Below, piece by piece: positions 2,676 to 27,460 of a stretch of 64,000 bases of DNA. The notes beneath the pieces were generated by a model. The model ran no database searches, had not been told where the DNA came from, and saw only the letters and a list, made by a program, of their open reading frames with translations. This DNA comes from a virus. Where the stretch lies: positions 116,135 to 180,134 of the IMG/VR virus record IMGVR_UViG_3300023202_000336. The stretch is one strand, 5' to 3'. The position numbers and the translations under genes were made by a program. Positions within the stretch are counted from its first letter, which is position 1. Each line of letters starts with the position of its first letter.

Positions 2676-2724
2676 TATGCCGCAACTTTTATTGCACAAT
2701 TGCGAAAATGCAAGGAGCTTTTCG

Positions 2725-3270
2725 ATGACCAAGCCATTACCCCTTGATGTAACGAAACTTAGGGATTTCGTGATAGAATCAAATACGGTCGAAGGCATCG
2801 TCAGAGACGAGAAAACACTTAAGGAGGAGGTAGAAGCTCACGAGCGACTGCTTCGGTGCAAAAAGGTCGAGGTTCGAGACGTCGTAAGACTCGTGAACAC
2901 AGTGCAGCCGAACGCTCAGTTCAGGGATCATCAAGATATCCCGGGAGTCTGCGTGATAGCGAGGGTGCAGCGTCGGCATCATACCGAGACAGTCGTTATG
3001 TCCGAACCTCCAGAGAGTGGACCGCTCATCAGGGCCCGTCTACAAGACGTGCTCGATAAAGTCGAGAGGATGGAGAACGTTTATACGAATCATCTTCTTT
3101 ATGAAGAGCTTCACCCTTTTACCGACGGGAACGGTCGTTCAGGACGGGCGGTATGGCTATGGCAGATGTTGCGTACTGATATACCGTGGGGTTATCGATT
3201 CGAGCTACCGTTCCTGCAGAAGTGGTACTATGACTCGTTCTCTATGCTCGCTCAGGAGCCTCGTATCTGA
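2725..3270 (+). CDS. Fic-domain protein (AMPylase family)
   Basis: Canonical HPFTDGNGRSGR motif; AAGGAG at 2712-2717 before ATG 2725. Confidence 0.9.
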   Translation: MTKPLPLDVTKLRDFVIESNTVEGIVRDEKTLKEEVEAHERLLRCKKVEVRDVVRLVNTVQPNAQFRDHQDIPGVCVIARVQRRHHTETVVMSEPPESGPLIRARLQDVLDKVERMENVYTNHLLYEELHPFTDGNGRSGRAVWLWQMLRTDIPWGYRFELPFLQKWYYDSFSMLAQEPRI

Positions 3271-3941: not shown

Positions 3942-4631
3942 ATGATAGATGCGATGGTAGCATATTACGGTAGGCAATTTCGAGTACGTAATAAGAACGT
4001 GTATAGATACCTTTCAGGAATGCAAAAGGATTATAACGAGAGAGCTCGAACGAGGTGTAGAGGGTTCGAATACATGCGTTTACGGAATAGAGGGTCAAAT
4101 TACTGTGGGAACCCATTTTGCCCGACGTGTTGGCACCGTAAACAAGAACATCTTATTAGCTTCATCATGGATGCTCGATCAGATTTATTATTTTTGAGAG
4201 TAACTGACGAGGTCCACTGGGAAGATACACTTAACAAAAGATATCTCGATAAACTAAAAAGTAGAAAATATAGACTCATAGCTCAATGTATTTCTTTTGA
4301 TAACCTTATAGGCGTGATCGATGATATCGGGTATAAAATAGCAGGCATATATAGCGCGAGTAGAGAGGTTCACGATGAGGATACACCAGGAGTGTCTTAT
4401 GTACACGAGCAGGCGAATGATCCTTTGTCGGAGGTGATAGGAGCGGTAGAAAAGCTCGAATACGAAGGAAGCGATAAAGAGAGTCTTATACATGATTGGC
4501 AAGATACTATGAAGCACCCGTATAAGTTTCGTAGGCACTCGAGGTTTAACGAGTATATTCGTAGGTTTGAAACGTTTCGTATTGAACGAAGTTGGGCGAA
4601 ACGCGGAATTGTACCCCGAGGAGGACGTTGA
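3942..4631 (+). CDS. Hypothetical protein with CxxxxCxxC zinc knuckle
   Basis: YCGNPFCPTCW; stop overlaps the sbcD start (TGATG). Confidence 0.55.
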   Translation: MIDAMVAYYGRQFRVRNKNVYRYLSGMQKDYNERARTRCRGFEYMRLRNRGSNYCGNPFCPTCWHRKQEHLISFIMDARSDLLFLRVTDEVHWEDTLNKRYLDKLKSRKYRLIAQCISFDNLIGVIDDIGYKIAGIYSASREVHDEDTPGVSYVHEQANDPLSEVIGAVEKLEYEGSDKESLIHDWQDTMKHPYKFRRHSRFNEYIRRFETFRIERSWAKRGIVPRGGR

Positions 4632-5725
4632 TGGCTAATCCGGCATTTATAGCTCTCGGAGATCTTCATCTTGATTTCTATATTTGGCGTAAATTCAAGC
4701 AAGTAAAAGGCGATTCGTTTCTAGGATTCACCTCTTTGATAAATAGAGGTATAGCTCTCGGCGTTCCGGTCGTACTCGTAGGCGACATATTCGATACAGT
4801 CGAGCCAGACCCAGCTATTATACGATTTTTTCGAAGAGAGATGGATAGATGCAGGGATAACGACGTTGAAGTATACGCGATTCAAGGGAATCACGATCGA
4901 CGCCCGATACCCTGGTACTCCGCAGTCCACGACTGGCCTATTCATATCGGAGACGGTGAGGAAGTAGATATAAACGGTATCGGATGCGTTGCTTTCGACA
5001 ATATGACGCGCGATAAAATAGAAGACGCTATAATGAGCCTGAGAGACTGCGTGCCGAAGCCAGACGTCCTGTTTCTTCATCAAGCGGTGCGTCAGATGCT
5101 GTCATTCGAAGGGGCGTGGAATTGCGATCTCGATTGGATACCGGAAGGCATCCCGGCCACTATAATGGGTGATATACATAAAGAATGGGAACATAAAATA
5201 CGCGAAGGACAGAAGGCGTATTATACCGGCTCGAGCCATCCGAGAGAAGCGCCGGAGATAGGTTCGAAATCATGTATCGTCGTAAATGACGATCTTTCGG
5301 TTGAGAGACTTCCAATTGATTATAGGCCTATGACGAAACTCTATGTGAGATCTGATAAAGAACTAGAGGATCTGCGATCATGGGTCAACGAGGCTGTCGA
5401 GTCGAATCCGAAACTTCCTCCGTTCGCCTGGGTTGTGGCGTCTCCGGAGAAAGAGAGCGATATACTGGAGTTCAGAGAATCCTTCGAGGACGGCTCAGTT
5501 ATAATCATAACCGAACCTTTCACATTTAAAGATGATATAGAAGATCCAATAGTTGATGATGAGGAATGTTTAAGTATAGAAGCGCTACTTTCAAGATTCT
5601 TCGATCCAGATGAAGAACCAAAGAGTTATTCGTTTGCGGCTGACCTGCTCGGTCAGTCGAAGAGCGTTCTCGACGTAATAGGAGAACGCAGGGACCAATT
5701 CTATCAGGAGACCGAAGGTTCATGA
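4631..5725 (+). CDS. sbcD: SbcD/Mre11-family nuclease
   Basis: Metallophosphoesterase motifs GDLH, GDIFD, GNHD, LFLHQ, GDIH, YTGS; sbcC homologue nearby. Confidence 0.9.
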   Translation: MANPAFIALGDLHLDFYIWRKFKQVKGDSFLGFTSLINRGIALGVPVVLVGDIFDTVEPDPAIIRFFRREMDRCRDNDVEVYAIQGNHDRRPIPWYSAVHDWPIHIGDGEEVDINGIGCVAFDNMTRDKIEDAIMSLRDCVPKPDVLFLHQAVRQMLSFEGAWNCDLDWIPEGIPATIMGDIHKEWEHKIREGQKAYYTGSSHPREAPEIGSKSCIVVNDDLSVERLPIDYRPMTKLYVRSDKELEDLRSWVNEAVESNPKLPPFAWVVASPEKESDILEFRESFEDGSVIIITEPFTFKDDIEDPIVDDEECLSIEALLSRFFDPDEEPKSYSFAADLLGQSKSVLDVIGERRDQFYQETEGS

Positions 5726-7254
5726 CGGACACCGCCGAACTGGTATACGTGATAAGAGATTCGCTGAAGAGCGATCTGCTGAGAGAGCTGGAAATAGAGG
5801 TTGAAGAGGACTCGTTGACTTTTCCGGCTACCGACGATGAAGAAGAGTTCACTATCGAATGCTGGCGTTTCCCGAAAGAAGAGGTGAGTAAGTTAATTGA
5901 TTATGGGTACAACTGTACCTCGCTCGCTACTCCTACTAACGAAGACCTTGGGGAAGAGATTCCGGAGGGGCGAAAGATCGAATTCTTGGCTCTGATGAAT
6001 CCGGACAATTCCCCCGCACATCACGATGTAGATCCTCGTGAAAGATTCACGGTCGATATCAATAGCTGGAACAGCCCAGCGCCCGAAAAATTCAAGAGTC
6101 GAATCAAGGAGATATTCGAGGAGAGGCTGATGCCGGTAGTTCGAAAGAACATCGGCATTACGGTCCCTCACGCCGTAAAGGCGTCCACGGTTACTGAGGG
6201 AAACACTTTCATCGTCCATGTATGGTCCTCTCCGGTCAGTGCGCCAGACCATGGATATGTTGTTCCTCCGCAGATGTGGGGAATACCAGTTCCTTGCGTC
6301 GATGGTAGTTCCCTTGGGATATGGGCGGACGGTAATCCAGTTATAACAGAGGAAGGTGATGAAGTCGCTGCTTTCGATGAATATAATCTCTACATCTATT
6401 TCGACGCTGTTGAGACCGGCAGTGAAAGTGAGGTTGCTATTCTCGAAAAGATCGCAGAAAGTGTCGCAACGCAACTTCGTGATGGCCTCGAATACGATCT
6501 CGATAAAGTAAAGACTAGTTATATAAAGCAGTGTGGTAAGCGTGTAGAGATGCAGAAGAAAAATCTTAAGAAGCAGATGACGGATCTCGAAACTAGAGCT
6601 ACAGAGTTGCAGCAGGAGATGGTGCGTACTCTGCGAGAACATAAGGAAGCTCGAGTACGGGTGGAAACGTTCGATAAGCATTCAGATGACATTAACAAGA
6701 TGCTTTCGGAAGAGTTCGACGCGCTTACCGAGATGCCGAAAATCGAGAGGGTGGAGTACCGTGGTAACAGTCTCGCTGTTCATACGAAAACTCTTTTCTG
6801 TACCGACCCGAGGACCGATAAGGTACACGAAATCGGGGCTTTCAAGCTGGTTATCGATGAGCTGAGAGGCGATGTATACTTCTATAACAAAACGAGAAAG
6901 ATAAATGCGTATAAAGCTCAAATGAACGGTCCCCACCTCTTCCCCGACGGGAGAGCGTGTCTCGGGAACATGACGAAGGTGTTTCCGCAGCTCATTTCGA
7001 GTTATGAGTGGAGCGCGGCTATCAACATGGCGTTGAGTTTTATCGAGCACGTAAATGTGGACGATACCGCCGGCGCCCATATCGACATGTGGCCGATAGC
7101 TACTGACCCGAGTAAGGAACGTAGAGAAGCTGTGGAAGAGGTTGCTGAAGCCGCAGAGGTTGTAACAGAAGGGCATGATGTCCCGGTTACAGAAAACACC
7201 GTACCCGCTGCTGCGACGGAAGACGCAGCAGATACCGTAGAAAGAGAGGGATAA
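5722..7254 (+). CDS. E2 (UBC)-like protein A: N-terminal domain, coiled coil, C-terminal E2-like domain
   Basis: PHLFPDGRACLG (C413) has the same spacing as the E2 motif PNIxxxGxICL; lies directly upstream of JAB, E1 and Ubl genes. Confidence 0.7.
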   Translation: MTDTAELVYVIRDSLKSDLLRELEIEVEEDSLTFPATDDEEEFTIECWRFPKEEVSKLIDYGYNCTSLATPTNEDLGEEIPEGRKIEFLALMNPDNSPAHHDVDPRERFTVDINSWNSPAPEKFKSRIKEIFEERLMPVVRKNIGITVPHAVKASTVTEGNTFIVHVWSSPVSAPDHGYVVPPQMWGIPVPCVDGSSLGIWADGNPVITEEGDEVAAFDEYNLYIYFDAVETGSESEVAILEKIAESVATQLRDGLEYDLDKVKTSYIKQCGKRVEMQKKNLKKQMTDLETRATELQQEMVRTLREHKEARVRVETFDKHSDDINKMLSEEFDALTEMPKIERVEYRGNSLAVHTKTLFCTDPRTDKVHEIGAFKLVIDELRGDVYFYNKTRKINAYKAQMNGPHLFPDGRACLGNMTKVFPQLISSYEWSAAINMALSFIEHVNVDDTAGAHIDMWPIATDPSKERREAVEEVAEAAEVVTEGHDVPVTENTVPAAATEDAADTVEREG

Positions 7255-7259
7255 GATAG

Positions 7260-7928
7260 ATGTTTCTCCCCCATAGTTTCAAAACAGAAGTAGGGGGCGT
7301 TCCCGAGATAATCATCTCTCAGCAGGCGTACTACGACATGTGGACCATCGTCGACAAAGTTACGACCGAAGTGGGGTGGATGGGAACAGCTCACCGTAGA
7401 GACGACGGCAATCTTTTCATCGAAGAAATTCTCTTGCTGAAGCAGCAGTGCCACTCGACCACTACCGAGATGTCCCCTGAGGGGTACGCAGATGCTGTTA
7501 CGCGTCTTGCGATGGAGGACGCCGAGAAAGGAATCAATCCGGAGTCGCCAGACTACAGGGCCAACAAACTTTTCTTCTGGGGCCATTCTCACGTAAACAT
7601 GGATACGTCTCCTTCGTCGCAAGACGATGCCCAGATCGAAATATTCAGAGGCGATGGATGTCCGTGGTTTATCCGCGGCATCTTCAACAAGAAGAAGAGA
7701 GCAGAGTTCACTGTATTTTTCTTCGACGCGAATCTGGCGGTCATAGACTGCCCGTGGTCGATAGAGGCTACCGTCGACGATGGTAGAAGAGAATTCTGGG
7801 AGAAGGAAATCAGTGATAAGGTCAGTACTTTCTCGTCGAGCTCGTATTACGGAAGTAACAAGCACAAAGGCAGCAGCTATACCCCTCGTAGGACGGGTGG
7901 TCAGTTCAGTGATCGGTGGAGTAAGTAA
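7260..7928 (+). CDS. JAB/MPN+ metalloprotease A
   Basis: TEVGW catalytic Glu plus H-S-H-x7-S-x2-D (HSHVNMDTSPSSQD). Confidence 0.9.
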   Translation: MFLPHSFKTEVGGVPEIIISQQAYYDMWTIVDKVTTEVGWMGTAHRRDDGNLFIEEILLLKQQCHSTTTEMSPEGYADAVTRLAMEDAEKGINPESPDYRANKLFFWGHSHVNMDTSPSSQDDAQIEIFRGDGCPWFIRGIFNKKKRAEFTVFFFDANLAVIDCPWSIEATVDDGRREFWEKEISDKVSTFSSSSYYGSNKHKGSSYTPRRTGGQFSDRWSK

Positions 7929-8635
7929 TGAGCGATACCGTGGATACTCTTCGGCATATCAAGGTATTCGACGCCGAGGAGTTCGCGAGCAAGCGGGTCG
8001 ACGTGATAGGGGCCGGAGCTACCGGCTCCCGAATCGCGCTCGCGTTGGCGAAGCTCGGGATCACGAATCTTCACGTGTGGGATTTCGATAAGATAGAGTC
8101 TCATAATATAGCTAATCAGGCTTACGGACTTAAAGATGTCGGTAAGCCGAAAGTACGTGCGTTGGAAGAGCTTATTCACGAGCAGACGGGGATTAGTATC
8201 GCTCCTCACGAAGAGGCTGCTACGAAAGAGTCCGATCTGGGAGCATATGTGTTCCTTCTCACGGATACCATGGCTTCGAGAAAAGAGATTTGGAAAGGTG
8301 CTTTGAAGTACAAAGCCCACGTAGAACTCGTCGTAGAAACGAGGATGGGAATCAGCGAAGGAAGAGTCTATTCCGTAGTTCCGTCAGAACCGGCGGAAGT
8401 TTCATTTTACGAAAAGACGTTCTGCGACGATGACGAAGCAGAGGAGAGCATGTGCGGTGCTCGGACCGTAGTCGGCTCCACCGCTGAGTTGGTGAGCGGC
8501 TACGCTGTGTGGGCTTTTCTCAGGTACTATAAGTATAATCTCGAACGAAAAGAAGAGCGACCAGAGGTAGAAATGCTGTTTTTTGCCAGCCCGGCAATGA
8601 CTATGACGAACTCGCCGAAACCGGTGCTCGTCTAA
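7928..8635 (+). CDS. ThiF/E1-family adenylyltransferase A
   Basis: GAGATGS, DFDKIESHNIANQ, GKPKV; candidate catalytic Cys176 (MCGART); no CxxC zinc pairs. Confidence 0.92.
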   Translation: MSDTVDTLRHIKVFDAEEFASKRVDVIGAGATGSRIALALAKLGITNLHVWDFDKIESHNIANQAYGLKDVGKPKVRALEELIHEQTGISIAPHEEAATKESDLGAYVFLLTDTMASRKEIWKGALKYKAHVELVVETRMGISEGRVYSVVPSEPAEVSFYEKTFCDDDEAEESMCGARTVVGSTAELVSGYAVWAFLRYYKYNLERKEERPEVEMLFFASPAMTMTNSPKPVLV

Positions 8636-8661
8636 CCAACTTCAAAAGGGAAGAACAAACT

Positions 8662-8913
8662 ATGATCGACATTTCCATCGGAGCGCCTCCCCGCTCTCCC
8701 ATGCGCACCGTCACCGTCCCCGACGATGCTTCCGTCGCGGATGCCATCGAAGCGGCTGGGCTCAACGGCCCGGAGTATCGGAACTTCGAGATCCGGGCGG
8801 GCGGCAACCACATCGATCACCCCGAGCGCGAACGCGCCACTCCGGGGATGACGGTGATCCTGGCCCCTCAGGTGAAGGGGAACGAGTTCGAAATTCGCAT
8901 CAAGACACGATAG
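8662..8913 (+). CDS. Ubiquitin-like (beta-grasp) protein A with masked C-terminal Gly
   Basis: TVTVPDDASVADAIEAAGL beta-grasp pattern ending PQVKG plus a 10-aa tail; follows the E1 gene. Confidence 0.75.
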   Translation: MIDISIGAPPRSPMRTVTVPDDASVADAIEAAGLNGPEYRNFEIRAGGNHIDHPERERATPGMTVILAPQVKGNEFEIRIKTR

Positions 8914-8926
8914 ATGGCCAGAAATA

Positions 8927-8950
8927 CCGGGGAGGAATCGTTCTCCCCGG
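8927..8950 (+). promoter_or_regulatory. Stem-loop after Ubl A
   Basis: CCGGGGAG/CTCCCCGG 8-bp stem with no U tract; function (mRNA stabiliser or pause site) is inferred. Confidence 0.45.
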
Positions 8951-8976
8951 CGTCATCTATGAGGAAGTGAGATAGC

Positions 8977-11340
8977 ATGATTACGAGAGTAAAAATTAAG
9001 AACTTCGGCGTTCATAAGTATATGGATATCGAGTTAGAAAAAGGTATAAACGGGATCATTGGTACGAATGGTTCCGGTAAATCAACGATACTCGAAGCTA
9101 TTAGATTCGGATTTACTGGTCAGGTATCTATGTCGGGGAATAAAGACGATAATGTTTCATGGGGCGAAGATCGCGGTAGTGTAGAGATTTGGTTCACGTA
9201 CGGTGACACTGATTATCAGCTGAAACGTACTCTTGGAGCTGGTTCTTCTCAGCGTCTGATCACCCCGGAAGACACTTATCGTCGAAAGACTGAAATCGAG
9301 CAGTATTTGAGAGAGCTTCTCGGCGCGAGTGCTGACGCGCTTTTGAACAATATTTTTCCTCCACAAGGAGATATAGATAAGATACTTTTCGATACGCGTA
9401 CCCAACGTTTGAAAGAGATGCAGCAAACCGTAGGGCTCCAAAGAGCTGCGGAAGCTGAAAAAGCCCTCGGTAACGAGATTAACAGTTATATATTAACGAT
9501 AGGTCTTGACGCACAGATAGAGGCAATCGAAGAAGAATTTGAAAAAGTAGACGAAGAGCTGAAAGATGCCACTCGACATAAAAGTTCAGTAGATGACGAG
9601 ATAGATTGTCTCGAAACCTATAGAGATAAGCTCAACGAGTTCATGATTTCGCAAGAAAATAGGGTCATATTGGATGATACCAAAAAGGAAATAGACGGCC
9701 TCGAACGAGAGCTCTACAAATCTAATCATGAGCGTCTTGAAATATCCAGTCATATAGAGGCAATGGCGTATCTTCGTGACTCGAAGAAACCGCTCGTAGA
9801 GGATGCTCAGGAGAAACTTCTCGACATCAGGTCGAGAGAGAAACAGATCAAAACGGTCGAATCTTTGAAAGAGAAACTCGTAAAGATAGATAAAGCGATA
9901 GTGGATCTCACAGAGTCGCGAGATGACCTTCTCGATATTATAGAGTCTAAGGAAGATCTCTTACGAAAGAAGCGTTCCAAGCTCGATCAATTAGTAGACA
10001 TCGAGAAGGAAAAGATCCCATACCCGGAGACAGAAGAGGAAAAAGAATATAAAGAAGAATATCAGAACATCGCAGCTGAGCTCGATGATCTGACGAAAAA
10101 GGAGCTGTTTTCGGAAGAGCTGGACGATCTTCAGAAGAAGTTAGAGGGTAGGAATCTCATGCTCGAGTCTATCGACGAGGGTAGCTGCTACGCATGCGGA
10201 GCTCCTGTAGACGACGTTAAGAGGGCCTTTGTTGAGAATGAAATAGAGGAGCTAGAAGGGTCGATTTCGGAGGTTTCAAAGGCTCTTCGCGCAGAACGCG
10301 ATGAGAAGGTACGCGAGTTGACCGAGTATCTCTCTGGTCTCGAAAAGAAAATAGAGTATTACATTAAGACGGCCCGCGAGGTAATATCCTCGAGAAGAAA
10401 GAAAATCGAAAAAGAAGTAGAGGAGCTCGAGAATGACTTGAAGATGCTCAGGTCCGAGAAAGAAACGCTCGGCGAGCTTCGTGCAAAGAAAACAGCAGTA
10501 GAAGAGCAGATATCCAATAACGAAGTAGTAGAGTCTCATGACGTGGATATCGACGAGCTTAAGAGCACGGTCGATAAATACGATAAGGTTCTTACGAAAT
10601 TGAGTGATCTCGAGAGCGAACTTAAGTTAAAGGAACAGAAAATAGAGAATATAGAATCCTCGTTACAGCGAGCTAATGAAAGGAAAGAAAAGATAGAAAG
10701 TAATACCGTCAGTTTTAGTGATGAGGAAATAGCTGAGGCGAAGGAGAAAGTGGACGTTCTTGCTGAGAGACTAAATTTTCGTAAGAGCCTCATAGAGGCC
10801 CTCACTGGACTGGAAGTGAAATATAAGGAATACTCTTCTTCGCTTAAGAGCCTTCATGAGAAATATGAGAGGGAAAAGAAAGATCAAGAATGGGTGAAAT
10901 TCTGTAAAAAAGTAAGAGACGTGTTTCATGTAAGTGCACTTCCGTCCCTCGCCATGAGAGAATACGCGACGGTACTGAACAAGCGTGTCGACTACTATCT
11001 GTCTACGTGGGAGGCTCATTTTACTATGGAGCTCGACGAAGAGCTGTCATTTATAGCTAAATTCGACGATAGAATACATCCGGCGAAGAGGTTGTCGGGT
11101 GGACAAAGGATAATTGCGAGTACAAGTTTTAGACTCGCGATGGGTGATACGTTCGCCAAACGCGTCGGATTGCTAGTTTTAGATGAGCCATCAGTCTATC
11201 TAGACAAAGATAACATCATACATCTACAGAGACTTTTACTGAAGTTGAAGGAGCTGGCCGGCGCGACCGGTAAACAGATCCTCTTGGTTACACACGAAGA
11301 GACATTAAGTGGTTTCTTCGATAACATCATCAGACTGTAA
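8977..11340 (+). CDS. sbcC: SbcC/Rad50 SMC-family ATPase
   Basis: Walker A GTNGSGKST, long coiled coil with central CYAC zinc hook, signature LSGGQ, Walker B LLVLDEP, H-loop VTHE. Confidence 0.93.
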   Translation: MITRVKIKNFGVHKYMDIELEKGINGIIGTNGSGKSTILEAIRFGFTGQVSMSGNKDDNVSWGEDRGSVEIWFTYGDTDYQLKRTLGAGSSQRLITPEDTYRRKTEIEQYLRELLGASADALLNNIFPPQGDIDKILFDTRTQRLKEMQQTVGLQRAAEAEKALGNEINSYILTIGLDAQIEAIEEEFEKVDEELKDATRHKSSVDDEIDCLETYRDKLNEFMISQENRVILDDTKKEIDGLERELYKSNHERLEISSHIEAMAYLRDSKKPLVEDAQEKLLDIRSREKQIKTVESLKEKLVKIDKAIVDLTESRDDLLDIIESKEDLLRKKRSKLDQLVDIEKEKIPYPETEEEKEYKEEYQNIAAELDDLTKKELFSEELDDLQKKLEGRNLMLESIDEGSCYACGAPVDDVKRAFVENEIEELEGSISEVSKALRAERDEKVRELTEYLSGLEKKIEYYIKTAREVISSRRKKIEKEVEELENDLKMLRSEKETLGELRAKKTAVEEQISNNEVVESHDVDIDELKSTVDKYDKVLTKLSDLESELKLKEQKIENIESSLQRANERKEKIESNTVSFSDEEIAEAKEKVDVLAERLNFRKSLIEALTGLEVKYKEYSSSLKSLHEKYEREKKDQEWVKFCKKVRDVFHVSALPSLAMREYATVLNKRVDYYLSTWEAHFTMELDEELSFIAKFDDRIHPAKRLSGGQRIIASTSFRLAMGDTFAKRVGLLVLDEPSVYLDKDNIIHLQRLLLKLKELAGATGKQILLVTHEETLSGFFDNIIRL

Positions 11341-11354
11341 AAAAGGGTCACATA

Positions 11355-12092
11355 ATGCCCAGAATCACTTTCATCAACGACGACGGCGCCGGATTCGGAT
11401 CCCCGCGCGAGGTCCCCTACGGCACCACCATGGCCGGTCTCTTCCGCGAGATCTGGCCGACGGGTAATCCGGAGCACTTCCGGTTTACTCTCAACGGTCG
11501 CTCCGCTACCGGTGACGATCGTCTCTCGGATGGCGATCGTGTCGCCATGATCGCCGCTACCGACGAGGCGCGTTACCCGGGTTACGGCCAGCGCCTCGGC
11601 GGTACCGTCGGTGGTTATGGTGCGGTCGACCGCGATGGTGGCGACCGCGTCGCTTTCATCGCTCCGCACGGCACCGGTTTCGCCGATTGGTACTACATCC
11701 GTCCTGGTACCACTCTCGAGCAGTTCGTTTATGAGCGTCTCGGTCGTCATTTCGACGTTCGCAATCACGTCATCAGCGTCGATGGCGTTCAGGGTCCCCC
11801 GGCCTCGCAGGTTCTCCGGGCGAACAACCATATCTCGGTCACTCCGCGCAACATCAAGGCTGCGTCGGATGTCGAGATCACCCTCATCAAGGGTTCCGGT
11901 GCCGGTTATGCGGCTCGTCGGCGTATCCCCCAGGGGACCACGCTCGGCGAGCTGTTTCACCGGGAGACCGAGGGTGACGATCCGGAGCGGACTCACATCA
12001 TCAAGCTCAACGGTGAGACCGCCACCCGCGATCGGGTTCTCGAGAACGGCGACTCGGTGACGATCTCTCCGAAGAACGTCAAAGGCGCCTGA
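11355..12092 (+). CDS. Triple ubiquitin-like (tandem beta-grasp) protein B
   Basis: Three similar domains each with GxGxxxxxxxxxGTT(M/L); the third ends PKNVKGA and the second PRNIKAA. Confidence 0.8.
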   Translation: MPRITFINDDGAGFGSPREVPYGTTMAGLFREIWPTGNPEHFRFTLNGRSATGDDRLSDGDRVAMIAATDEARYPGYGQRLGGTVGGYGAVDRDGGDRVAFIAPHGTGFADWYYIRPGTTLEQFVYERLGRHFDVRNHVISVDGVQGPPASQVLRANNHISVTPRNIKAASDVEITLIKGSGAGYAARRRIPQGTTLGELFHRETEGDDPERTHIIKLNGETATRDRVLENGDSVTISPKNVKGA

Positions 12093-12099
12093 GCAGTTA

Positions 12100-12140
12100 G
12101 AGGGGAGGCAGCATTCGTCTGCCTCCCCTCGTTTTTGTTT
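12100..12140 (+). terminator. Intrinsic terminator after triple Ubl
   Basis: 12-bp stem GAGGGGAGGCAG/CTGCCTCCCCTC followed by GTTTTTGTTT. Confidence 0.8.
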
Positions 12141-12194
12141 ACCCCATCTCACCACGATCGAGAGATCGAGAGATCGAAAACCATAAGGAGCGTT

Positions 12195-14267
12195 ATGGCC
12201 TCAATCGAGGATACTCTGCAAGGAACGTTCGTTCCTACTCCTCATCAGATCCAGAAGTACAAGTTCGTAGGTGATGATCTCTCCATATACCCGTGCGAAG
12301 GGCTCGAAGAGCGTAGGTTCCTAAGGCTTTTGATGCTCGCTGCAAGATTCTATAGTATTCTCTGTGAGAACGAAGGTAAGACGGCTCTCAATAGAAACAG
12401 GCAGTTGATACAGTCAGAGATTGAAGGATTCTCGCGATCGATCAATAATCTCCGAAGATCAGTTGGAGAGTTAAATCAAAAGAGTTCCGTGAAATTCATG
12501 AAGGAAGTTCAGAAGACTTCTGGATACGTGGAAGCTATGGAAAAGACGATAGGAGAAATAGTAGACCGTGGAGTAGAGAAGTCGTCTCTTTTCGATTTTA
12601 TGACGATCTATAAAGACTTCTACCATATGAGTGTCGGTGACGTTTACGAAGGGGTTTACCCCATTTTCTACGAAGATATCAAAAAAGACAAAAAGTTGGC
12701 AGTTATAGGTAAACCAGAGGCGGAAGTTTTTAATGACAAGATCGTAATACTTACAAAGCCGGCATCTATTAAGCACAATAAGAGAATTATTGACTTCGGA
12801 AACTATTTTATCACGTACTCTTTCCAGGTGTTGAACGATGCTTTACGGTCTGGAAACTCGGCTGCAATTCATAGCGGTTTGCGCCTCTCATCGCCGTCTC
12901 CACGTTACCCAAAAGACGATGACGGGGATAATATACACCCTCACATATCCGGTAACGGTATGTGCACAGGAGAGGCAGGTTACCGTATCTTGAGCTTTCT
13001 CCAGCAGGGCGTACTTTCAGGGGTTTTCCAACTCGTAAACAGCATCCTGAATACACTCGGATCAGGTCCCTACAGAGCGATCAGCGCCTGGGATCCTCGC
13101 CCGTCGTGTGCGGGGTGTGGCGAGATTATCGGTGAAGATGACGAAAGGGTCAATTGTTCTTCGAATGGTGCAGCGCTTCACAAGTCGTGCGCATATGAAG
13201 ACGAGGATGGGAACTTTCACGAACATCGCTTCGTCAAGACTTGTACCTTCTGTTTCAACGAGGGTGTTTTCGATGACAGGACTACGCGTGGAGGCAATGT
13301 CGGATGTCCTCTGTGCATTGAGGAGCTTTCGCGAGTCGAAAATCTCGTCAACGAAGGAAAGTTCCCTTGCCCGAACTGTAATCACGTTCATGAAGGCGAA
13401 GACGCGTTCGATCATAAGATAGAGCTCGGAGAGAAGGACTACGCGTGTACCAGATGTGTGAGCTGGGTCAGAGAGCCCAACGAGGACGGCGTCGGCACCT
13501 GTGAAGTAGAAGGAATAGGTCGCGTCACTACAAGTCGCATGATAACCCAGAGGAGTCGCCGCTCTTTTCCGCGTATTCCGAATATCGTCGTCTGCAGCTG
13601 CGGATCGAGAGTAGCCGAAGAAAATATCAGAAGAGACGATTTCGCAATGTCCAACTGTTGCCAGGTATGCGACCCCGATAATCTCGGAATGTCTCAGTCG
13701 TTCCTTGCGCAGGTGCCTATCATGGAAGCGTGGCTGTGGAACTTTTACGGAACGCATATAGGTGAGATGACGACGCAGTATTGCCGCCTCTATAGTTTCG
13801 TCGGCGAAGACGTTTCTGCCGAACGGGCTGCGAGCGTGGTCAAGAGATTGCGATGCTGGGAGATTAACCTGAGTAGAACCATGTGCTACGTCGATCGCCA
13901 TACCTCTCTGAGAGAGAAGGCCATATTCTGGGAAACCGTTTTAGCCGATACCGGCTTCATCATCCTGACCGCAGACGAGGAAAGCATCCGTATCCATGAC
14001 GAAATCCAAAGATTCCGAACAGAAGACGCGACGCGCGCCGGTAACGCGCCGGAAGGCGTCCTCGAAAGAGAAAGAGAAAGGATCCAGGAAACCCTCCGGC
14101 GGCTCAGAGACTTCTTCTCCGGAAGAAGAGCCGCAAGAGATGAAGAAGGAAGAGAAGAAGAAGGAAGAGAAGAAGACGGAAGAGAAAGAACCGACGAAGA
14201 TCGAGAAGAAATCCGAGCAGGCGAAGCAGGAGTCGTCGAGGCCGTCGATACCGGTGACGGCGCCTGA
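12195..14267 (+). CDS. E2-like protein B fused to multiple zinc fingers
   Basis: HPHISGNGMCTG E2-like motif (Cys codon 12963) followed by CAGC-C-HKSC, CTFC, CPLC, CPNC, CTRC, CSC and CCQVC; AAGGAG before ATG 12195. Confidence 0.7.
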   Translation: MASIEDTLQGTFVPTPHQIQKYKFVGDDLSIYPCEGLEERRFLRLLMLAARFYSILCENEGKTALNRNRQLIQSEIEGFSRSINNLRRSVGELNQKSSVKFMKEVQKTSGYVEAMEKTIGEIVDRGVEKSSLFDFMTIYKDFYHMSVGDVYEGVYPIFYEDIKKDKKLAVIGKPEAEVFNDKIVILTKPASIKHNKRIIDFGNYFITYSFQVLNDALRSGNSAAIHSGLRLSSPSPRYPKDDDGDNIHPHISGNGMCTGEAGYRILSFLQQGVLSGVFQLVNSILNTLGSGPYRAISAWDPRPSCAGCGEIIGEDDERVNCSSNGAALHKSCAYEDEDGNFHEHRFVKTCTFCFNEGVFDDRTTRGGNVGCPLCIEELSRVENLVNEGKFPCPNCNHVHEGEDAFDHKIELGEKDYACTRCVSWVREPNEDGVGTCEVEGIGRVTTSRMITQRSRRSFPRIPNIVVCSCGSRVAEENIRRDDFAMSNCCQVCDPDNLGMSQSFLAQVPIMEAWLWNFYGTHIGEMTTQYCRLYSFVGEDVSAERAASVVKRLRCWEINLSRTMCYVDRHTSLREKAIFWETVLADTGFIILTADEESIRIHDEIQRFRTEDATRAGNAPEGVLERERERIQETLRRLRDFFSGRRAARDEEGREEEGREEDGRERTDEDREEIRAGEAGVVEAVDTGDGA

Positions 14268-15960
14268 AGAGAAGAGAAAAGAGGCAGAGGATCTTCCAGC
14301 CTCTCCCGTGAGGCCTATACTCGAGTATTCCGAGGGAGTCGACGCCCTGTATTTCACGCCGTATGCTTGGGCGAAGCTCCAGTTCATGTGTCACTCCGTC
14401 GATACCGAAATCGGCGGAATGGCACTTACGGCAGCAGACAATCCGTTTCTCATCGAGGATATAGGTATCGTCAAGCAGAAGGCGAGTGCAGCTTTCGTTG
14501 ATTTCGATGACGAGGCGTTGAACGATTTCATGACCGAGCAGTTCGTAAAGCACGATCGTCAGCCGATCAACTGCATGAGGATCTGGATACATACGCATCC
14601 GCATGGATGCACGAAGCCTTCGGGACAGGACGAAAATACGTTCAGAGACGCTTTCGGAAGCGCAGACTGGGCAGTGATGTTCATTCTTGCGAAATCAGGA
14701 GAGGTCTACGCGCGTATGCGGGCTGATACTGCGCACGGCGTTTCGATCAACAAGCATCTCGACGTAGATATAGACTGGTCCAAACCTTTCGAGGGTTCGG
14801 ACCACGACAGCTGGCTCGAAGAGATCCGTGAGAAGGTCACTATCAGAACGTATTCGACTCCAGCAAAAGTAACGAGGTTCCCTGGTACGAGAAGCCGCGG
14901 CGTAAACGCGCTGATAAGCGATAAGAGATCGAGCTCGAACTCCACGAAGTCTTACATCGATGATGATTATATTTTAGATAATGAGTGGTACGGCGGTGGA
15001 TACGGTTACGGAGACGGTTACGGCGGTCAGAGAAGGTATTCCCGCGATAGTACGACGCACGGGAGGAAGGTGGAGATTCGCCTGTATCCTGAACACGTCT
15101 GCTACGATATGCCGAACCAGCTTTATATCAATCTGCTGAAGATGCCCCGTAAGAATTCGTTCTTCATTCATTCGGATAAGAAGGTTCTCGAGAAACTCGG
15201 GGCGGTGATGGTTCCGTACAAGAAGCACGAGGGCAAAGAGACCGCTAAGTTCCTCTGCTATATCAAGAGTCATGGCAAGAAGTATACAGTCGATTCGAGA
15301 GCACTCACTATGATGGTCGACCACCCCGTTCCCGTCCTCAAAGCTATTTTGGAAGAGCGTCACGAAGCCGAACAGAAGCTTCTGAAGATAGCGGATGGCA
15401 GGAACGAGAACATGTACGGTTTTACCGATATCTTCGGTAAACGGTGTCATGTAATCGTTCCTTGGTTCTGCCTGAACAGGAGGCTGATCTGGCTTTCGGA
15501 GGACGAGTATGTGACGATGGAAGAGATAAACGACGGTATTACTTCGCTTGAAGAGTCACTCGATAAAGAGGAAGATGATACGAAGGAGCTTACGACAGTG
15601 GGCAGCGAGGACGATAAGGGTGACGAACAGTTTTTGGATAAGGAAATCGAAGATTTGGAGACCGGGTTCTTCTTGGAAGAGAAGGAGCTGGCGGACGGTA
15701 AGCGTAAGATAAATCTCAGTTTCGATCACTTCTTCTCGGAAGCGTGGGATAACGTAATAGCGTACCTTAAGGCAGCGAACTATTTCGGAGCGAGTGAGAA
15801 GGACATCGAGACGAGACTCTTCAAGTACGAAATGGAAGCCAAAGCAGATGTAGAGAGAGAAGCTTACGAGGCGGTGAATAAGCTGGTGAGGTTGAAGGGT
15901 TACGACGTAGAAGCTCTCAAAGCCGTGATGATCAGTGACCAGAAGGAGGAAGAGGAATGA
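14254..15960 (+). CDS. JAB/MPN+ metalloprotease B with long C-terminal extension
   Basis: TEIGG plus H-T-H-x7-S-x2-D (HTHPHGCTKPSGQD); start uncertain (GTG 14254 preferred over 13996). Confidence 0.88.
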   Translation: MTAPEEKRKEAEDLPASPVRPILEYSEGVDALYFTPYAWAKLQFMCHSVDTEIGGMALTAADNPFLIEDIGIVKQKASAAFVDFDDEALNDFMTEQFVKHDRQPINCMRIWIHTHPHGCTKPSGQDENTFRDAFGSADWAVMFILAKSGEVYARMRADTAHGVSINKHLDVDIDWSKPFEGSDHDSWLEEIREKVTIRTYSTPAKVTRFPGTRSRGVNALISDKRSSSNSTKSYIDDDYILDNEWYGGGYGYGDGYGGQRRYSRDSTTHGRKVEIRLYPEHVCYDMPNQLYINLLKMPRKNSFFIHSDKKVLEKLGAVMVPYKKHEGKETAKFLCYIKSHGKKYTVDSRALTMMVDHPVPVLKAILEERHEAEQKLLKIADGRNENMYGFTDIFGKRCHVIVPWFCLNRRLIWLSEDEYVTMEEINDGITSLEESLDKEEDDTKELTTVGSEDDKGDEQFLDKEIEDLETGFFLEEKELADGKRKINLSFDHFFSEAWDNVIAYLKAANYFGASEKDIETRLFKYEMEAKADVEREAYEAVNKLVRLKGYDVEALKAVMISDQKEEEE

Positions 15961-16634
15961 GCGAAGAGCAGACCACTGTAGAAGAGCGCTATAGCCGACA
16001 GGCATCTCTGATACCTCCCGATAAAATCGCTACTTTGACGGTATGCGTGATCGGTGTCGGCGCTATCGGGAGGCAAGCTGCACTTCAGCTTGCCGCCTCA
16101 GGTGTCGGACGTCTGAAACTGATAGATCACGACGATATCGAAAGGGTGAATCTCGGTCCTCAGGGCTATTACGAGTCGGACATCGGGAAGAAGAAAGTCG
16201 AAGCGACAGCTGACGTGGCGCGATCGAACAACCCGGAGATCAGCATCGAGGCGGTAGATCGACGTTACAATCCTGTAGACGGCGATTGTGATGCGGTCTT
16301 CATGTGCGTCGATAGCATCGAGACTCGAAGGTTCATCTATGAATCTTTGATGGATCGGAAGCCGTTCCTTGTCGACGGCAGGATGGCCGCTGAGACGCTG
16401 AGAATCGTGACCGCCTACGATGATTCGACTTACGAGGACTACGAAGAGACACTCTTTTCAGATGATGAAGCTTTCGAGGGAGAGTGTACTGCAAGAAGCA
16501 CTATCTATTCGGCGAACATCGCCGCAGGACTGATGGTTGCGCAGTTCGCAAAGTGGGTTAGAGAGATGGAGATGATTATCAAGCCTGACTTCATTCTTAA
16601 TCTTCTGAGTGGAGAGCTATTCGAAACGGAGTAA
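15957..16634 (+). CDS. ThiF/E1-family adenylyltransferase B
   Basis: GVGAIG, DHDDIERVNLGPQ, GKKKV, CVDSIETR; candidate catalytic Cys177 (ECTARST). Confidence 0.92.
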   Translation: MSEEQTTVEERYSRQASLIPPDKIATLTVCVIGVGAIGRQAALQLAASGVGRLKLIDHDDIERVNLGPQGYYESDIGKKKVEATADVARSNNPEISIEAVDRRYNPVDGDCDAVFMCVDSIETRRFIYESLMDRKPFLVDGRMAAETLRIVTAYDDSTYEDYEETLFSDDEAFEGECTARSTIYSANIAAGLMVAQFAKWVREMEMIIKPDFILNLLSGELFETE

Positions 16635-16635
16635 A

Positions 16636-18102
16636 ATGGCGTATCTCGCGTATATCGGTAGAGCTTTGGCGCTATACCCAGCGAAACTGGGTGAGCTTTT
16701 CGAAGAGCACTGTACGGTAGAAAAAGTAGTTAGCGAAGAGGTATGGAAAACCAGTAGGTCGACCGGTCGACGGTATCGTAAAGTCGAGCGGATAGGCAAA
16801 AAGGTAGAGATGTACTGGTACGCCGAAGACGATGGAAAAGAAGTTTTCTGTGCCTATTCAGGGTACGGTGCTCATATCGAAAAGACGCTAAAGCAACGAA
16901 AGATTCCATACACCACCGAGAACCGTGTCGATCACGGTCTTCCGAAACCAAATCTTGAAGCGATCAGACATATAGAATGGCGGCCACGGCAAAAAGAAGT
17001 CGTGGCCGCCATTCTGGCTTACAACGGGGGTGCTATCGATTGCCCGACGGCGTTCGGTAAAACCTTTATAGTTAAGCAGATCGCAAAAGTTTATCCGGAG
17101 TCCCCTATTATCGTAACTGTTCCGTCCGTGGATATCGCAAATGACATCTACGATGGATTACGTTTCGATATACCGGGGGTGGGAATGGTCGGCGACGGAA
17201 AGAATAAACCAGATAGGGTTACAGTTGCGGTAAGCCAGTCGTTACACAAGTGCGATAGGCACGCGAGTTTGGTTCTTGTAGACGAGTGTCATGCGATTCT
17301 CACGACGAATTTCATAAAGAAGCTTCATAGATTCTATCGGGCAAAGTTCTTCGGATTTACCGCTTCTCCGGAAGGTAGAAGCGACAAGGCAGACAGGTTT
17401 TTAGAGGCTTTATTCGGGGAGGTATTAGTCCGTGTTTCCTATCAAGAGTGCGTAGAGAGCGGAAACGTTGCTCCTATTAAAGTACACGCTTACACCGTAG
17501 AAGACGGGCCTGACGTTTCAGCAATAGAGAATCATACGAAGGCAGATCGCCTCGGTATATGGACGAACCGTACAAGAAACGAATTCATTGCGCGTGTAGT
17601 AAGAAAAGTAGAAAAGGATGTTGGCGACAACGAACAGATTCTGATTATGGTCGATAAGACCGAGCACGCCTATGCTCTTGGGCAGTATCTCGACGACTAC
17701 ACCGTTGTTTCAGCCGAACCCGATCCGAGACGAGTTGCCCAAATGCGACGAAACGGGTCGATGTTACGGGCGCAAAAGATATGTACTAAGAAGTCGCGGG
17801 GATATTATAAACGTATGTTCGAGCTCGGGAGACTCAAAAAGGTTATCGCAACGAAGGTGTGGAAACAGGGAGTCGATTTTCAGGACCTTTCGGTTCTCGT
17901 ACGCGCTGATGCCGTTTCAACTCCGATACAGTCTACACAGATCCCGGGAAGACTTAGTAGACTCGGACGAGAAAAAGAGAAAGATTACGGCATACTTATA
18001 GATTTCTTCGATAAGTTTAGTGGGAATTTGTACGCGCGTTCACTAAATAGATTCAAGGTGTATCGCAGCAAAGGGTGGAGTATCGAGAACAAGACATGTT
18101 AA
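16636..18102 (+). CDS. SF2 helicase (UvsW-like)
   Basis: PTAFGKT, VDECH, TASP, QGVD, QIPGRLSR motifs. Confidence 0.88.
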   Translation: MAYLAYIGRALALYPAKLGELFEEHCTVEKVVSEEVWKTSRSTGRRYRKVERIGKKVEMYWYAEDDGKEVFCAYSGYGAHIEKTLKQRKIPYTTENRVDHGLPKPNLEAIRHIEWRPRQKEVVAAILAYNGGAIDCPTAFGKTFIVKQIAKVYPESPIIVTVPSVDIANDIYDGLRFDIPGVGMVGDGKNKPDRVTVAVSQSLHKCDRHASLVLVDECHAILTTNFIKKLHRFYRAKFFGFTASPEGRSDKADRFLEALFGEVLVRVSYQECVESGNVAPIKVHAYTVEDGPDVSAIENHTKADRLGIWTNRTRNEFIARVVRKVEKDVGDNEQILIMVDKTEHAYALGQYLDDYTVVSAEPDPRRVAQMRRNGSMLRAQKICTKKSRGYYKRMFELGRLKKVIATKVWKQGVDFQDLSVLVRADAVSTPIQSTQIPGRLSRLGREKEKDYGILIDFFDKFSGNLYARSLNRFKVYRSKGWSIENKTC

Positions 18103-18647
18103 CTTTCGATGAGATTATAGATGAGGAGGGGAATCACCGAGTTCCTGATCCAGAGCTCGTAAAGCTTGCAAACGAGATATTAGATGCTTTCAAAGAGATA
18201 GCCCCAGAGATACCGATCCCCCGTAAAAGTAAGATGCAGTTCTATAAAGCTGCTGCGATATGTAAAGAACACGGAATGGCGCCGATCGACTTCGTACGGT
18301 CGCGAGTGCACGATATGAGAACTTCTGGTATGAAGTGGGCAACAGCGATCGCCTGTGATAGATTCGGTACGGTGGAGTCCGACCACAACATATTGTGTAT
18401 CGAAGATATTAGGCACTATAAATCGCAGGTTGACCTTTTCCGCCGGCTCTCAAGTATCTACGGCTCTCAGCTCACAGTAGAGGATCGGTCGAACGCGTTT
18501 ACTCCGCTTTTCCGTTGTATGCTCGCGTATACCTATGGGAACGAGGAGGTTTTTAAGCAGTACAAAGAGGCTGCGAAGGAAGAGTTGAAGATTGTTTCGG
18601 TGGCGAAAGAGATATTTAAGGAGTTAGCGAAGGTGCTTGATGACTAA
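18075..18647 (+). CDS. Hypothetical protein
   Basis: ORF overlapping both neighbouring helicase genes. Confidence 0.6.
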   Translation: MEYREQDMLTFDEIIDEEGNHRVPDPELVKLANEILDAFKEIAPEIPIPRKSKMQFYKAAAICKEHGMAPIDFVRSRVHDMRTSGMKWATAIACDRFGTVESDHNILCIEDIRHYKSQVDLFRRLSSIYGSQLTVEDRSNAFTPLFRCMLAYTYGNEEVFKQYKEAAKEELKIVSVAKEIFKELAKVLDD

Positions 18648-20074: not shown

Positions 20075-21130
20075 ATGGTATTAAATCCAAGCCTTTACGC
20101 TGCTCTGAAGCATAAATTCGGAGAAGTGTACGTTACTAACGAGAATGAACGGCGGCTAGAATCGAGAGTACCCGGTGAGAGGTTTCCAGAGGTTATAGAG
20201 AGAGGAGAGCACTACAACGTATGCTGTCCGTACTGTGGAGATACGAGAAATAGACTTTCTATTTCGTACAAATGGCTCGATAAGCACCCGTTCAGCGGAA
20301 AGTTGATGACGCATCTTATAAACTGTTACAACGAGTCTTGCGAAGATATCAGGTCTGAAGACTTTTATCTCGACATTATCGAGAAGATGGAGCTTGCGGA
20401 CCTCGGGATGCTCCCCGAAGCCGATAACATTCCGGCCGGAACGCCGAAAGTGCAGCAATATGCTATACCGATGCCTGAAGGCTGCGTTCCTATAGGGTCG
20501 CTTCCAGAAGAGCATGAGGCGATACAATTCATAAAGCATAAGTACAATTTCAACATAAGATTCATAGACAAATTTTATGAAGTGAAATGGTGTGGATATA
20601 CCGATCCAAAATTTAAATGTTCGAAAAATAGAATCATCTTCCCGATACGTAAAGACGGGGAGCTGGTTGCTTGGCAAGGGAGGACTATAGAGGCCGACAA
20701 TAGTATGCGATGGTTCCTACCTCCCGGCTTTGTAAAATGCTTCTATAACGGCGATATGGTAGATCCTATCGAGACGCCAGTCATAACCGAAGGTATTCCA
20801 GCGTCTATCGCTTGTGGTCCTAAGGGGATATGTATATTTGGTAAAAAGCTGAGCCTTATGAGAAGCAAGGAGTTTTCTGATAAATGGACGTCCGCTATAG
20901 TAGCTACCGACCCTGATACGTTCGTGAAAGACCCTAAAAGCGGTAGAATACCTGCGTACGATACGAAGAGTAATCTTGAAAGATTTATAAACGATGTCAG
21001 GCTGATAAGATGGCCGAGTGAGATACTTACTCGAGCGAAAAGGAAGTTAGACGGGGAAGATATTTTCGTCCCGGATCCGGCAGATATCGGGATGAAAGCT
21101 ATGAAACGACTTATAGAAGAAGCGAGATAG
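20075..21130 (+). CDS. DNA primase (DnaG/TOPRIM type)
   Basis: N-terminal CPYC zinc finger, RIIFP and WQGR motifs, TOPRIM ITEG and TDPD. Confidence 0.8.
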   Translation: MVLNPSLYAALKHKFGEVYVTNENERRLESRVPGERFPEVIERGEHYNVCCPYCGDTRNRLSISYKWLDKHPFSGKLMTHLINCYNESCEDIRSEDFYLDIIEKMELADLGMLPEADNIPAGTPKVQQYAIPMPEGCVPIGSLPEEHEAIQFIKHKYNFNIRFIDKFYEVKWCGYTDPKFKCSKNRIIFPIRKDGELVAWQGRTIEADNSMRWFLPPGFVKCFYNGDMVDPIETPVITEGIPASIACGPKGICIFGKKLSLMRSKEFSDKWTSAIVATDPDTFVKDPKSGRIPAYDTKSNLERFINDVRLIRWPSEILTRAKRKLDGEDIFVPDPADIGMKAMKRLIEEAR

Positions 21131-27316: not shown

Positions 27317-27460
27317 ATGAAGATGCACCGGACACAGATAAGCCTCCCGCCCGTCCTCTTCGGTTGGCTCAAAGCCGAAGCTGAAAGAAAAGGAATCAGC
27401 ATCGCTGAACTCATTCGCCGCGTCTTGGATCGTGAATATGAAGATCAGCAGAAGCAGTAA
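27317..27460 (+). CDS. Ribbon-helix-helix (CopG-like) protein, 47 aa, not in the ORF track
   Basis: MHRTQISL beta strand plus AERKGISIAELIRRVL helices; overlaps the tnpB start. Confidence 0.75.
   Translation: MKMHRTQISLPPVLFGWLKAEAERKGISIAELIRRVLDREYEDQQKQ

Follow-up and report, generated by a model that had tools for sequence, protein, structure and literature searches.

A 64,000-nucleotide stretch (the window), the last 64 kb of the 180,134-bp virus record IMGVR_UViG_3300023202_000336, contains two complete sets of genes predicted to encode ubiquitin-like protein (Ubl) conjugation systems. The record has direct terminal repeats and is rated complete. Each set comprises a Ubl, a putative activating enzyme (E1), a putative conjugating enzyme (E2), and a JAB metallopeptidase. 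Cassette A (E2-JAB-E1-Ubl) is located between sbcD and sbcC, the genes for Mre11- and Rad50-like proteins, and cassette B (Ubl-E2-JAB-E1) between sbcC and a superfamily 2 (SF2) helicase gene. We regard the two as accessory gene sets for Ubl conjugation that are specific to phages and occupy plastic junctions within an early/middle DNA metabolism block, a reading to which we assign a probability of roughly 0.6. The gene arrangements are most simply explained if, in this phage group, the junctions on either side of sbcC accept cargo, which in one lineage consists of two Ubl cassettes. The adjacency to sbcC would then, on the best reading, reflect insertion into plastic junctions and not a family-wide partnership with SbcCD, and the proximity of the Mre11/Rad50 genes should not be taken as a functional link.

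The cassettes are part of a single co-directional, densely packed run of plus-strand genes extending from 3.9 to 24.2 kb of the window, in the order sbcD, cassette A, sbcC, cassette B, SF2 helicase, a small open reading frame (ORF), DnaB-like helicase, primase, and PolA (Table 1). The first-pass annotation of the window had described this order, and the ORF coordinates and family matches bore it out except for one omission, the 190-aa ORF (18075 to 18647) between the SF2 helicase and DnaB-like genes. The close gene junctions it had listed were also read in the sequence: the stop codon of sbcD and the start codon of E2A share ATGA at 5722 to 5725, base 7928 is common to JABA and E1A (TAATG), JABB and E1B overlap in ATGA at 15957 to 15960, and a single base (16635) separates the E1B stop codon (16632 to 16634) from the ATG of the SF2 helicase gene at 16636 (TAA-A-ATG).

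Table 1. Features of the Ubl cassettes and of the surrounding block (window positions)
Feature	Position	Strand	Evidence or description
Cys-rich 229-aa conserved gene, 5' of sbcD	3942..4631	+	No Pfam match
sbcD / Mre11-like nuclease	4631..5725	+	Metallophos 1.8e-07; Mre11 and sbcD NCBIfam matches
E2A	5722..7254	+	N-terminal alpha/beta domain, ~100-residue coiled coil, C-terminal UBC-fold domain (model)
JABA, putative JAMM metallopeptidase (HSHx7Sx2D)	7260..7928	+	Motif in translation
E1A, minimal single-domain ThiF-type E1, 235 aa	7928..8635	+	ThiF 4.7e-21; Cap2 E1-domain matches
UblA, putative beta-grasp Ubl precursor, ...VKGN + 9-residue tail	8662..8913	+	Family alignment A6
sbcC / Rad50-like ATPase, CxxC hook	8977..11340	+	AAA_23 1.2e-22, SMC_N, PHROG 77, Rad50
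UblB, three tandem beta-grasp units, ...VKGA	11355..12092	+	ThiS 4.9e-10 (2 stretches), Ub-Mut7C
Terminator-like hairpin, 12 bp (9 GC), then T-run GTTTTTGTTT	12100..12130	+	dG -31.8, z -6.2
E2B	12195..14267	+	N-terminal helical region, putative E2 core, then CxxC pairs (zinc-ribbon-like)
JABB, putative JAMM peptidase (HTHx7Sx2D)	13996..15960	+	PADLOC JAB 5.9e-06; Prok-JAB 0.0049
E1B, minimal ThiF-type E1, 225 aa	15957..16634	+	ThiF 5.5e-30
SF2 (ResIII/SNF2-like) helicase, first backbone gene past cassette B	16636..18102	+	
DnaB-like helicase	18637-20073	+	Family match
Primase	20075-21130	+	Family match
PolA, UDG-like N-terminus	21133-24219	+	Family match

Homologous loci in viral contigs were found by alignment-based scans; single-sequence pattern scans of viral contigs for E2A and SbcC gave no match. 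Besides the window, four contigs (IMGVR 3300023202_000205, 3300044712_000998, 3300028800_000089, and 3300028800_000073) have the interleaved layout; their proteins are 35 to 59% identical to those of the window. Type-A cassettes were identified in ~17 other contigs, from phages of 110 to 216 kb, with no sbcCD within 10 kb; SbcC is encoded 19 to 30 kb away in two of the genomes with such nonadjacent cassettes and has no match in three. In genomes G002 and G005, which share the backbone of the window, the cassette lies at this distance from sbcD, sbcC, and the SF2 helicase gene, which are contiguous or nearly so (in G005, two small ORFs separate sbcD from sbcC and one ORF precedes the helicase gene). 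The type-B order Ubl-E2-JAB-E1 is kept in ~40 further contigs, and it adjoins sbcC and the SF2 helicase gene only in two contigs of the clade of the window. Many cassette loci of the survey hold more than one E2 paralogue.

Eight or nine lineages have the sbcD-sbcC-SF2-DnaB-primase backbone but no Ubl genes at the two junctions, and neither type of E1 is encoded in G010 (164,893 bp), a complete relative that shares the backbone. The first-pass annotation had described sbcD and sbcC as normally adjacent. This applies to four of the lineages, in which the two genes are directly adjacent, but not to four others, in which two or three unrelated ORFs lie between them; an RNA ligase gene (L040, positions 11494 to 12645) is located at the sbcD-sbcC junction of one backbone relative. 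The junction between sbcC and the SF2 helicase gene contains zero to two ORFs in cassette-free relatives. A conserved ORF of ~310 aa with no known family is present at this latter junction in five lineages (L040 to L043 and L045).

A search of the flanks for repeats marking cassette insertion returned only short matches at chance level. Genes for Cas12f1-like_TNB (TnpB/Cas12f-like) proteins are present in the window (27432 to 28520 and 45553 to 45975) and beside the type-A cassettes of loci L008, L012, and L015, and they may be relevant to cassette mobility. In ten contigs (L013 to L022), a 695-aa protein with no known family is encoded on the opposite strand 1 to 3 kb past the type-A cassette; its homologue in G000 (C1:35833-38703, locus L024) has 956 aa and a match to an intein-splicing domain.

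The cassettes appear to be restricted to phages. When 185,579 species genomes were scanned with a pattern, a single locus was detected, on a 5-kb contig of a metagenome-assembled genome, and the look-alikes in the Atlas were mostly viral. Among metagenome proteins, the E2A family comprises 3,315 clusters (50% identity) at E<=1e-3 and 956 at 1e-30. Searches of cultured phages by megablast with the whole block and by tblastn with E2A gave no match.

In cassette A, the E2 assignment was examined on a structural model. The AlphaFold2 (AF2) model of E2A had a predicted local distance difference test (pLDDT) score of 77.7, and its residues ~320 to 460 form a UBC fold. E2 enzymes made up nearly all of the Foldseek matches listed for this model, including the top 30, with probabilities of up to 0.99. 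The ten best rows of a VIA-align comparison against 48,161 chains were likewise all E2 enzymes. UbcH10 ranked first, with a Z score of 8.0 (borderline by the tool's own note), a root mean square deviation of 3.7, and an alignment of 115 residues that spans model residues 322 to 459. The UBC domain and the coiled coil accounted for most of the matches in this search, which thus bears on these parts of E2A and not on the fold of residues 1 to 235. As modelled, E2A is a member of the UBC/E2 superfamily. An alignment of nine homologues revealed the invariant motif P404-H405...G410..C413.G415. Neither E2A nor E2B had a Pfam match at E<=0.01, so neither belongs to the families Prok-E2_A to Prok-E2_E. 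One structure row from the Atlas, for E2A residues 325 to 465, led to a Prok-E2_D cluster with template modelling (TM) scores of 0.20/0.39, values that make it a lead only, and a profile of alignment A1 searched against PDB sequences gave nothing beyond coiled-coil noise.

JABA carries the metal-site sequence HSHVNMDTSPSSQD with a Glu residue upstream and is conserved beside E1 at 20 loci, while JABA itself had no Pfam or PADLOC match. At ~20 type-A loci, the gene following E1 encodes a protein of 67 to 178 aa with units ending in K-G-N. Many of these type-A Ubls consist of two or three such units in tandem, each with KGN at its end, which suggests polyubiquitin-like precursors in phages. ThiS was matched by 6 of the 16 members of the UblA family, and UblA of the window itself had no Pfam match. 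The UblA tail EFEIRIKTR (window 8899 to 8913) looks like the remnant of a second Ubl unit, whose first strand it resembles.

In cassette B, the orthologues of UblB end in [K/E]-G-[A/N/S] followed by 0 to 8 residues, and throughout Ubl families A and B nearly all members have a conserved Gly and then 1 to 17 extra residues. The E2B ORF opens at TTG 12135, but translation most likely starts at ATG 12195, to judge from the Shine-Dalgarno sequence AAGGAG. E2B contains an invariant H268-P269-H270...C277.G279 (alignment A2, four orthologues). When E2B was compared with the E2A family by hhalign (E 4e-4, probability 34%), the HPH..C.G motif and a Trp were in register, so that E2B is a probable E2 enzyme by sequence; its AF2 model, made from four sequences, had a pLDDT of 42 and was unusable. 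Five or six CxxC pairs, invariant in the four orthologues, are located 3' of the core (residues ~325 to 515; window 13100 to 13700). They may form zinc ribbons and thus a built-in E3-like or target-binding module; the region had a weak match to CxxC_VVA0879 and to no other family.

JABB has the metal-site sequence HTHPHGCTKPSGQD with a Glu upstream, a K/E-rich N terminus, and a C-terminal extension of ~350 aa with no family match. The E2B and JABB ORFs share 272 purine-rich nucleotides (13996 to 14267), or 128 if JABB starts at ATG 14140, and both frames are open through this GAA/GAG-rich stretch. The overlap amounts to ~155 nucleotides in loci L003 and L004, with the same +1 frame relation, and to 4 nucleotides in L011. 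It could represent an alternative start, a real overlap, or an E2-JAB fusion made by frameshifting. E1B has 3,888 homologues at E<=1e-10, and those listed, its best, are about 50 to 55% identical to it, closer than its positional orthologues in L003 and L004 (39%).

Both cassettes look catalytically intact, as judged from conserved residues. In an alignment of 23 phage E1s, an N-terminal Arg, GxGAxG, DxD..N..Q, a Lys, and RM..R are invariant, and a single invariant Cys follows the T..D acidic loop. JABA and JABB both contain the JAMM/MPN+ site E...HxHx7Sx2D. Identity of the E1s with ThiF or MoeB as equivalogs was rejected, since the best NCBIfam ThiF matches reached 67 and 81 bits against a cutoff of 159.

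Cassettes A and B appear to be old and distinct, with an ancient divergence between them. Their E1s are 31% identical and their JABs 24% identical across the motif; E2A and E2B, as well as UblA and UblB, have no similarity to each other by BLAST. E1A-type and E1B-type proteins form separate clades in the E1 trees. In the free tree, the five positional copies of E1B fell into more than one clade, but the approximately unbiased (AU) test left their monophyly unrejected (p 0.189); repeated insertion or replacement of E1B is therefore not claimed here. L008 encodes two E1s, one of which clusters with the E1A of the window clade (support, 99/98) and is its nearest relative outside that clade; no SbcC was detected in the L008 phage.

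The conserved Gly, the variable tails, the poly-Ubl relatives, and the Cys residues of E1 and E2 fit a modifier that would be processed by JAB, activated by E1, and transferred by E2. From the gene content, motifs, E2A fold, synteny, and distribution, we infer the chemical steps and the class of targets as follows. Each cassette would most likely be a self-contained tagging machine. JAB would first cut the Ubl precursor behind its conserved Gly, at KG|N for type A and at [K/E]G|[A/N] for type B. This Gly would next be adenylated by the small ThiF-type E1, which presumably acts as a homodimer, and handed to the invariant E1 Cys, from which the Ubl would move to the invariant Cys of the UBC-type E2. 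The large noncatalytic parts of the E2s, namely, the N-terminal domain and coiled coil of E2A and the helical N terminus and Cys-rich region of E2B, would choose the targets. Given their patchy, cargo-like distribution, the cassettes in our view more likely act on proteins of the host or of competitors, in host takeover or counter-defence, than on the SbcCD of the phage itself.

The cassettes would be transcribed with the early/middle DNA metabolism genes. The first-pass annotation had proposed that the Ubl system is coexpressed with the replication machinery; the co-orientation and tight spacing of the genes make this plausible for the replication/recombination block, but the hairpin after UblB punctuates the block. 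An equally strong hairpin directly follows UblB in L003, L004, and L011, despite differing sequences, so that it is present in four genomes including the window. This conserved element between UblB and E2B indicates that the block is not one plain operon or is at least punctuated, and it would probably raise the ratio of Ubl to enzymes. Three tandem GATCGAGA repeats at 12156 to 12177, followed by AAGGAG and the ATG at 12195, could be a regulatory or promoter element that serves the polymerase of the phage itself. Matches to sigma-70-type promoters occurred at chance level only.

Several points weigh against the favoured reading. The interleaving, with Ubl genes facing sbcC on both sides, is kept in five deeply diverged genomes, and the sbcD stop codon overlaps the E2A start codon in both the window and L011. 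The UBC fold of E2B is putative, and conjugation by members of these families is itself a prediction. Furthermore, cassettes or E1-JAB cores are located near replication/repair genes in several unrelated phage lineages, according to neighbour counts that are plain tallies computed with no null model. A SNF2 helicase gene is present ~2 kb upstream of the cassettes in ten contigs, genes for a D5 primase-helicase and SNF2 lie just downstream in ~7 contigs of small phages, and a ribonucleotide reductase (RNR) is also encoded near a cassette or E1-JAB core, as are an NAD-dependent DNA ligase and PolA. An E1 homologue is encoded near DNA ligase and topoisomerase genes in Xanthomonas phage PhiXhv-12 (L032) and near genes for primase, uracil-DNA glycosylase (UDG), and exonuclease VIII in Flavobacterium phage FpV4 (L033). 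A general link of the cassettes to DNA metabolism thus has to be reckoned with. However, neighbours of this kind are usual for any early or middle phage gene, and numerous type-B loci are located amid small unassigned ORFs; we take the neighbourhoods as evidence for timing and not for targets.

The two cultured phages have partial counterparts of the cassettes. The FpV4 protein gp51, encoded beside the E1 homologue gp50, is JAB-like (1.2e-06), and a neighbour of the PhiXhv-12 E1 homologue has a weak E2A-like match (1.3e-03); no Ubl was found among the E1 neighbours in either phage. The label "thiamine biosynthesis protein ThiF" on these E1 homologues is probably wrong. As cultured carriers of related E1-JAB genes, the FpV4 group of Flavobacterium psychrophilum phages and PhiXhv-12 offer an entry point and are possible experimental models. 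Some type-B loci have a further neighbour: a classical AAA ATPase (PF00004, AAA_lid_3) is encoded ~2 to 5 kb past the cassette in L053, L055, L056, L061, L063, L066, L076, and L049. In loci of the L061 type, another protein follows the ATPase (with DUF3150 in L061). The phage of the window has three PF00004 genes 18 to 28 kb past the cassettes (at ~33.9, 42.35, and 43.97 kb).

The first-pass annotation had suggested that the cassettes tag the SbcC, SbcD, SF2 helicase, or replisome of the phage and so regulate recombination-dependent replication, in analogy to the action of SUMO and ubiquitin on the Mre11-Rad50-Nbs1 (MRN) and structural maintenance of chromosomes (SMC) complexes. The interleaved order shared by the five genomes, the overlapping sbcD and E2A codons, the one-base spacing of E1B and the SF2 helicase gene, the Ubl genes abutting sbcC on either side, and the helicase, primase, ligase, topoisomerase, and RNR genes near the cassettes of other lineages all agree with such a role. 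Nevertheless, we consider it unlikely. The majority of cassettes of both types lie away from sbcCD, three cassette-bearing genomes have no SbcC match, backbone relatives possess sbcD-sbcC-SF2 with no cassette (or, in the complete G010, no E1), and the same junctions hold other cargo elsewhere. The hairpin separates UblB from E2B, and replication gene neighbours are the default for early and middle phage genes. Before the survey was made, homologous modules in unrelated contexts had been named as the outcome that would count against modification of the end-processing and replication machinery; such contexts were found for both cassette types in many phages, and the survey largely speaks against this claim and lends it no support. 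A complex prediction for SbcD and E2A from alignments A4 and A5 (score, 0.00; mark, 0.32) argues neither for nor against binding. It is similarly improbable that the Ubl machinery tags or regulates the Mre11/Rad50 proteins of the phage or the neighbouring helicase and that an action on sbcC is what kept the cassettes next to this gene. If true, this would be a prokaryotic virus counterpart of the control of MRN and SMC complexes by SUMO and ubiquitin.

Another possibility, for which we see only a small chance, is phage-borne exclusion, in which the cassettes would tag structural proteins of competing phages, as in the bacterial Bil system, and block their assembly during coinfection. The parts list is that of Bil (Ubl, E2, JAB, and E1) (PMC11601596; 10.1101/2023.09.04.556158), and both the patchy, cargo-like distribution and the multiple E2 paralogues at many loci would suit such a function; however, no membership in Bil was found by sequence, the E1s are minimal and single-domain while that of Bil is multidomain, and the cassettes are found in a 180-kb phage genome that has direct terminal repeats and not in a defence island. 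It is very improbable that the Ubls are ThiS/MoaD-type thiocarboxylate carriers, activated by ThiF-like enzymes, that serve to thio-modify a cofactor, a nucleotide, or a tRNA and that JAB does no more than unmask their Gly: the best family matches of the E1s and UblB are indeed ThiF and ThiS/MoaD and database labels of homologues read ThiS adenylyltransferase, but the NCBIfam ThiF and MoeB matches are all far below the cutoffs, each cassette encodes a putative UBC-type protein with an invariant Cys, poly-Ubl precursors are present among the relatives, and no rhodanese, ThiG/H, or MoaE was found among the genes scanned.

We thus favour accessory cassettes in plastic junctions of the DNA metabolism block. 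The cassettes would combine complete Ubl gene sets, minimal E1s, and unclassified E2 families on a phage that carries two of them, and the families concerned are large. If they conjugate, phages own protein-tagging systems that are active in the early/middle phase, with host, rival phage, or self proteins as candidate targets.

The backbone genes surrounding the cassettes encode divergent members of the Mre11/Rad50 families, as all equivalog scores of SbcD and SbcC are below the cutoffs. SbcD has the phosphoesterase motifs, with the nuclease residues D11, H13, G51-D52, G86-N87-H88-D89, H150, and H183 invariant across six orthologues. SbcC matches PHROG 77 (SbcC-like) at 1.2e-40 and Rad50 models near 1e-40, and Walker A, the signature motif LSGGQ, Walker B, and the CxxC hook (CYAC) were read in its translation. 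In PolA, a UDG superfamily domain (residues 115 to 217) precedes the 3'-5' exonuclease and polymerase domains. Upstream of sbcD, the stop codon of the gene for the 229-aa protein overlaps the sbcD start codon (TGATG), and orthologues of this gene are also located upstream of sbcD in L003, L004, and L011. Directly upstream of the block, a 197-aa protein with a Fic/DOC domain (1.4e-05; 2677 to 3270) is encoded next to the large terminase gene (957 to 2798), which runs in the opposite orientation.

To our knowledge, prokaryotic Ubl conjugation has been characterised only as host defence (the type II cyclic oligonucleotide-based antiphage signalling system [CBASS] and Bil) or in operons with no assigned role (Bub). 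A literature search, whose coverage excluded subscription journals, returned no description of phage-encoded E1/E2/JAB/Ubl cassettes. The backbone pair resembles other phage and bacterial Mre11/Rad50 pairs (T4 gp47/gp46 and SbcCD) in its nuclease motifs, Walker A and B motifs, signature motif, and CxxC hook, and sbcD and sbcC head a replication block as their relatives do. In contrast to T4 gp47/gp46 and SbcCD, the two genes of the window are split by a four-gene cassette of 3.2 kb.

Cap2 of type II CBASS is the nearest solved or profiled relative of the E1s (Cap2, 3.5e-06; PADLOC E1-E2, 9.2e-16), and CBASS also has a JAB partner (Cap3). However, E2 and E1 are encoded by separate genes in the cassettes and are fused in Cap2, and the cassettes have a dedicated putative Ubl whereas CBASS has a CD-NTase substrate; no CD-NTase or effector was found among the neighbouring genes in general family scans. 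The Bub operons (formerly 6E/DUF6527) are similar in having a diverged prokaryotic set of E1, E2, Ubl, and peptidase and in their multidomain Ubls. The chemistry of Bub is based on Ser and Tyr oxyesters, and its DUF6527 serine protease, BubE, is always present (PMC11601596), whereas the window-type E1s and E2s have an invariant Cys and no DUF6527 match was found in the block genes scanned.

Bil consists of BilA (Ubl), BilB (E2), BilC (JAB), and BilD (E1) and corresponds to class 6d of Iyer et al. 2006 (PMC1779556; PMC11601596; 10.1101/2023.09.04.556158). Its Ubl has a reactive C-terminal Gly that is sometimes masked by a short tail, some of its Ubls have tandem beta-grasp domains, and, as the system has no E3, the E2 is thought to select the targets (PMC11601596; 10.1101/2023.09.04.556158). 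The cassettes appear to share its four parts, with a Ubl bearing a C-terminal Gly encoded together with E2, JAB, and E1. They differ from Bil in that a single ThiF domain fills E1A (235 aa) and E1B (225 aa), whereas BilD has the architecture IAD-AAD-CYS, and in that their E2s are large (510 to 710 aa), with large extra domains and no match to Pfam, PADLOC, or NCBIfam E2 models. Moreover, Bil is found in bacterial defence loci, whereas the cassettes are borne by a complete 180-kb phage and have their own gene orders (E2-JAB-E1-Ubl and Ubl-E2-JAB-E1) and Ubl ends (KGN or [K/E]G[A/N]).

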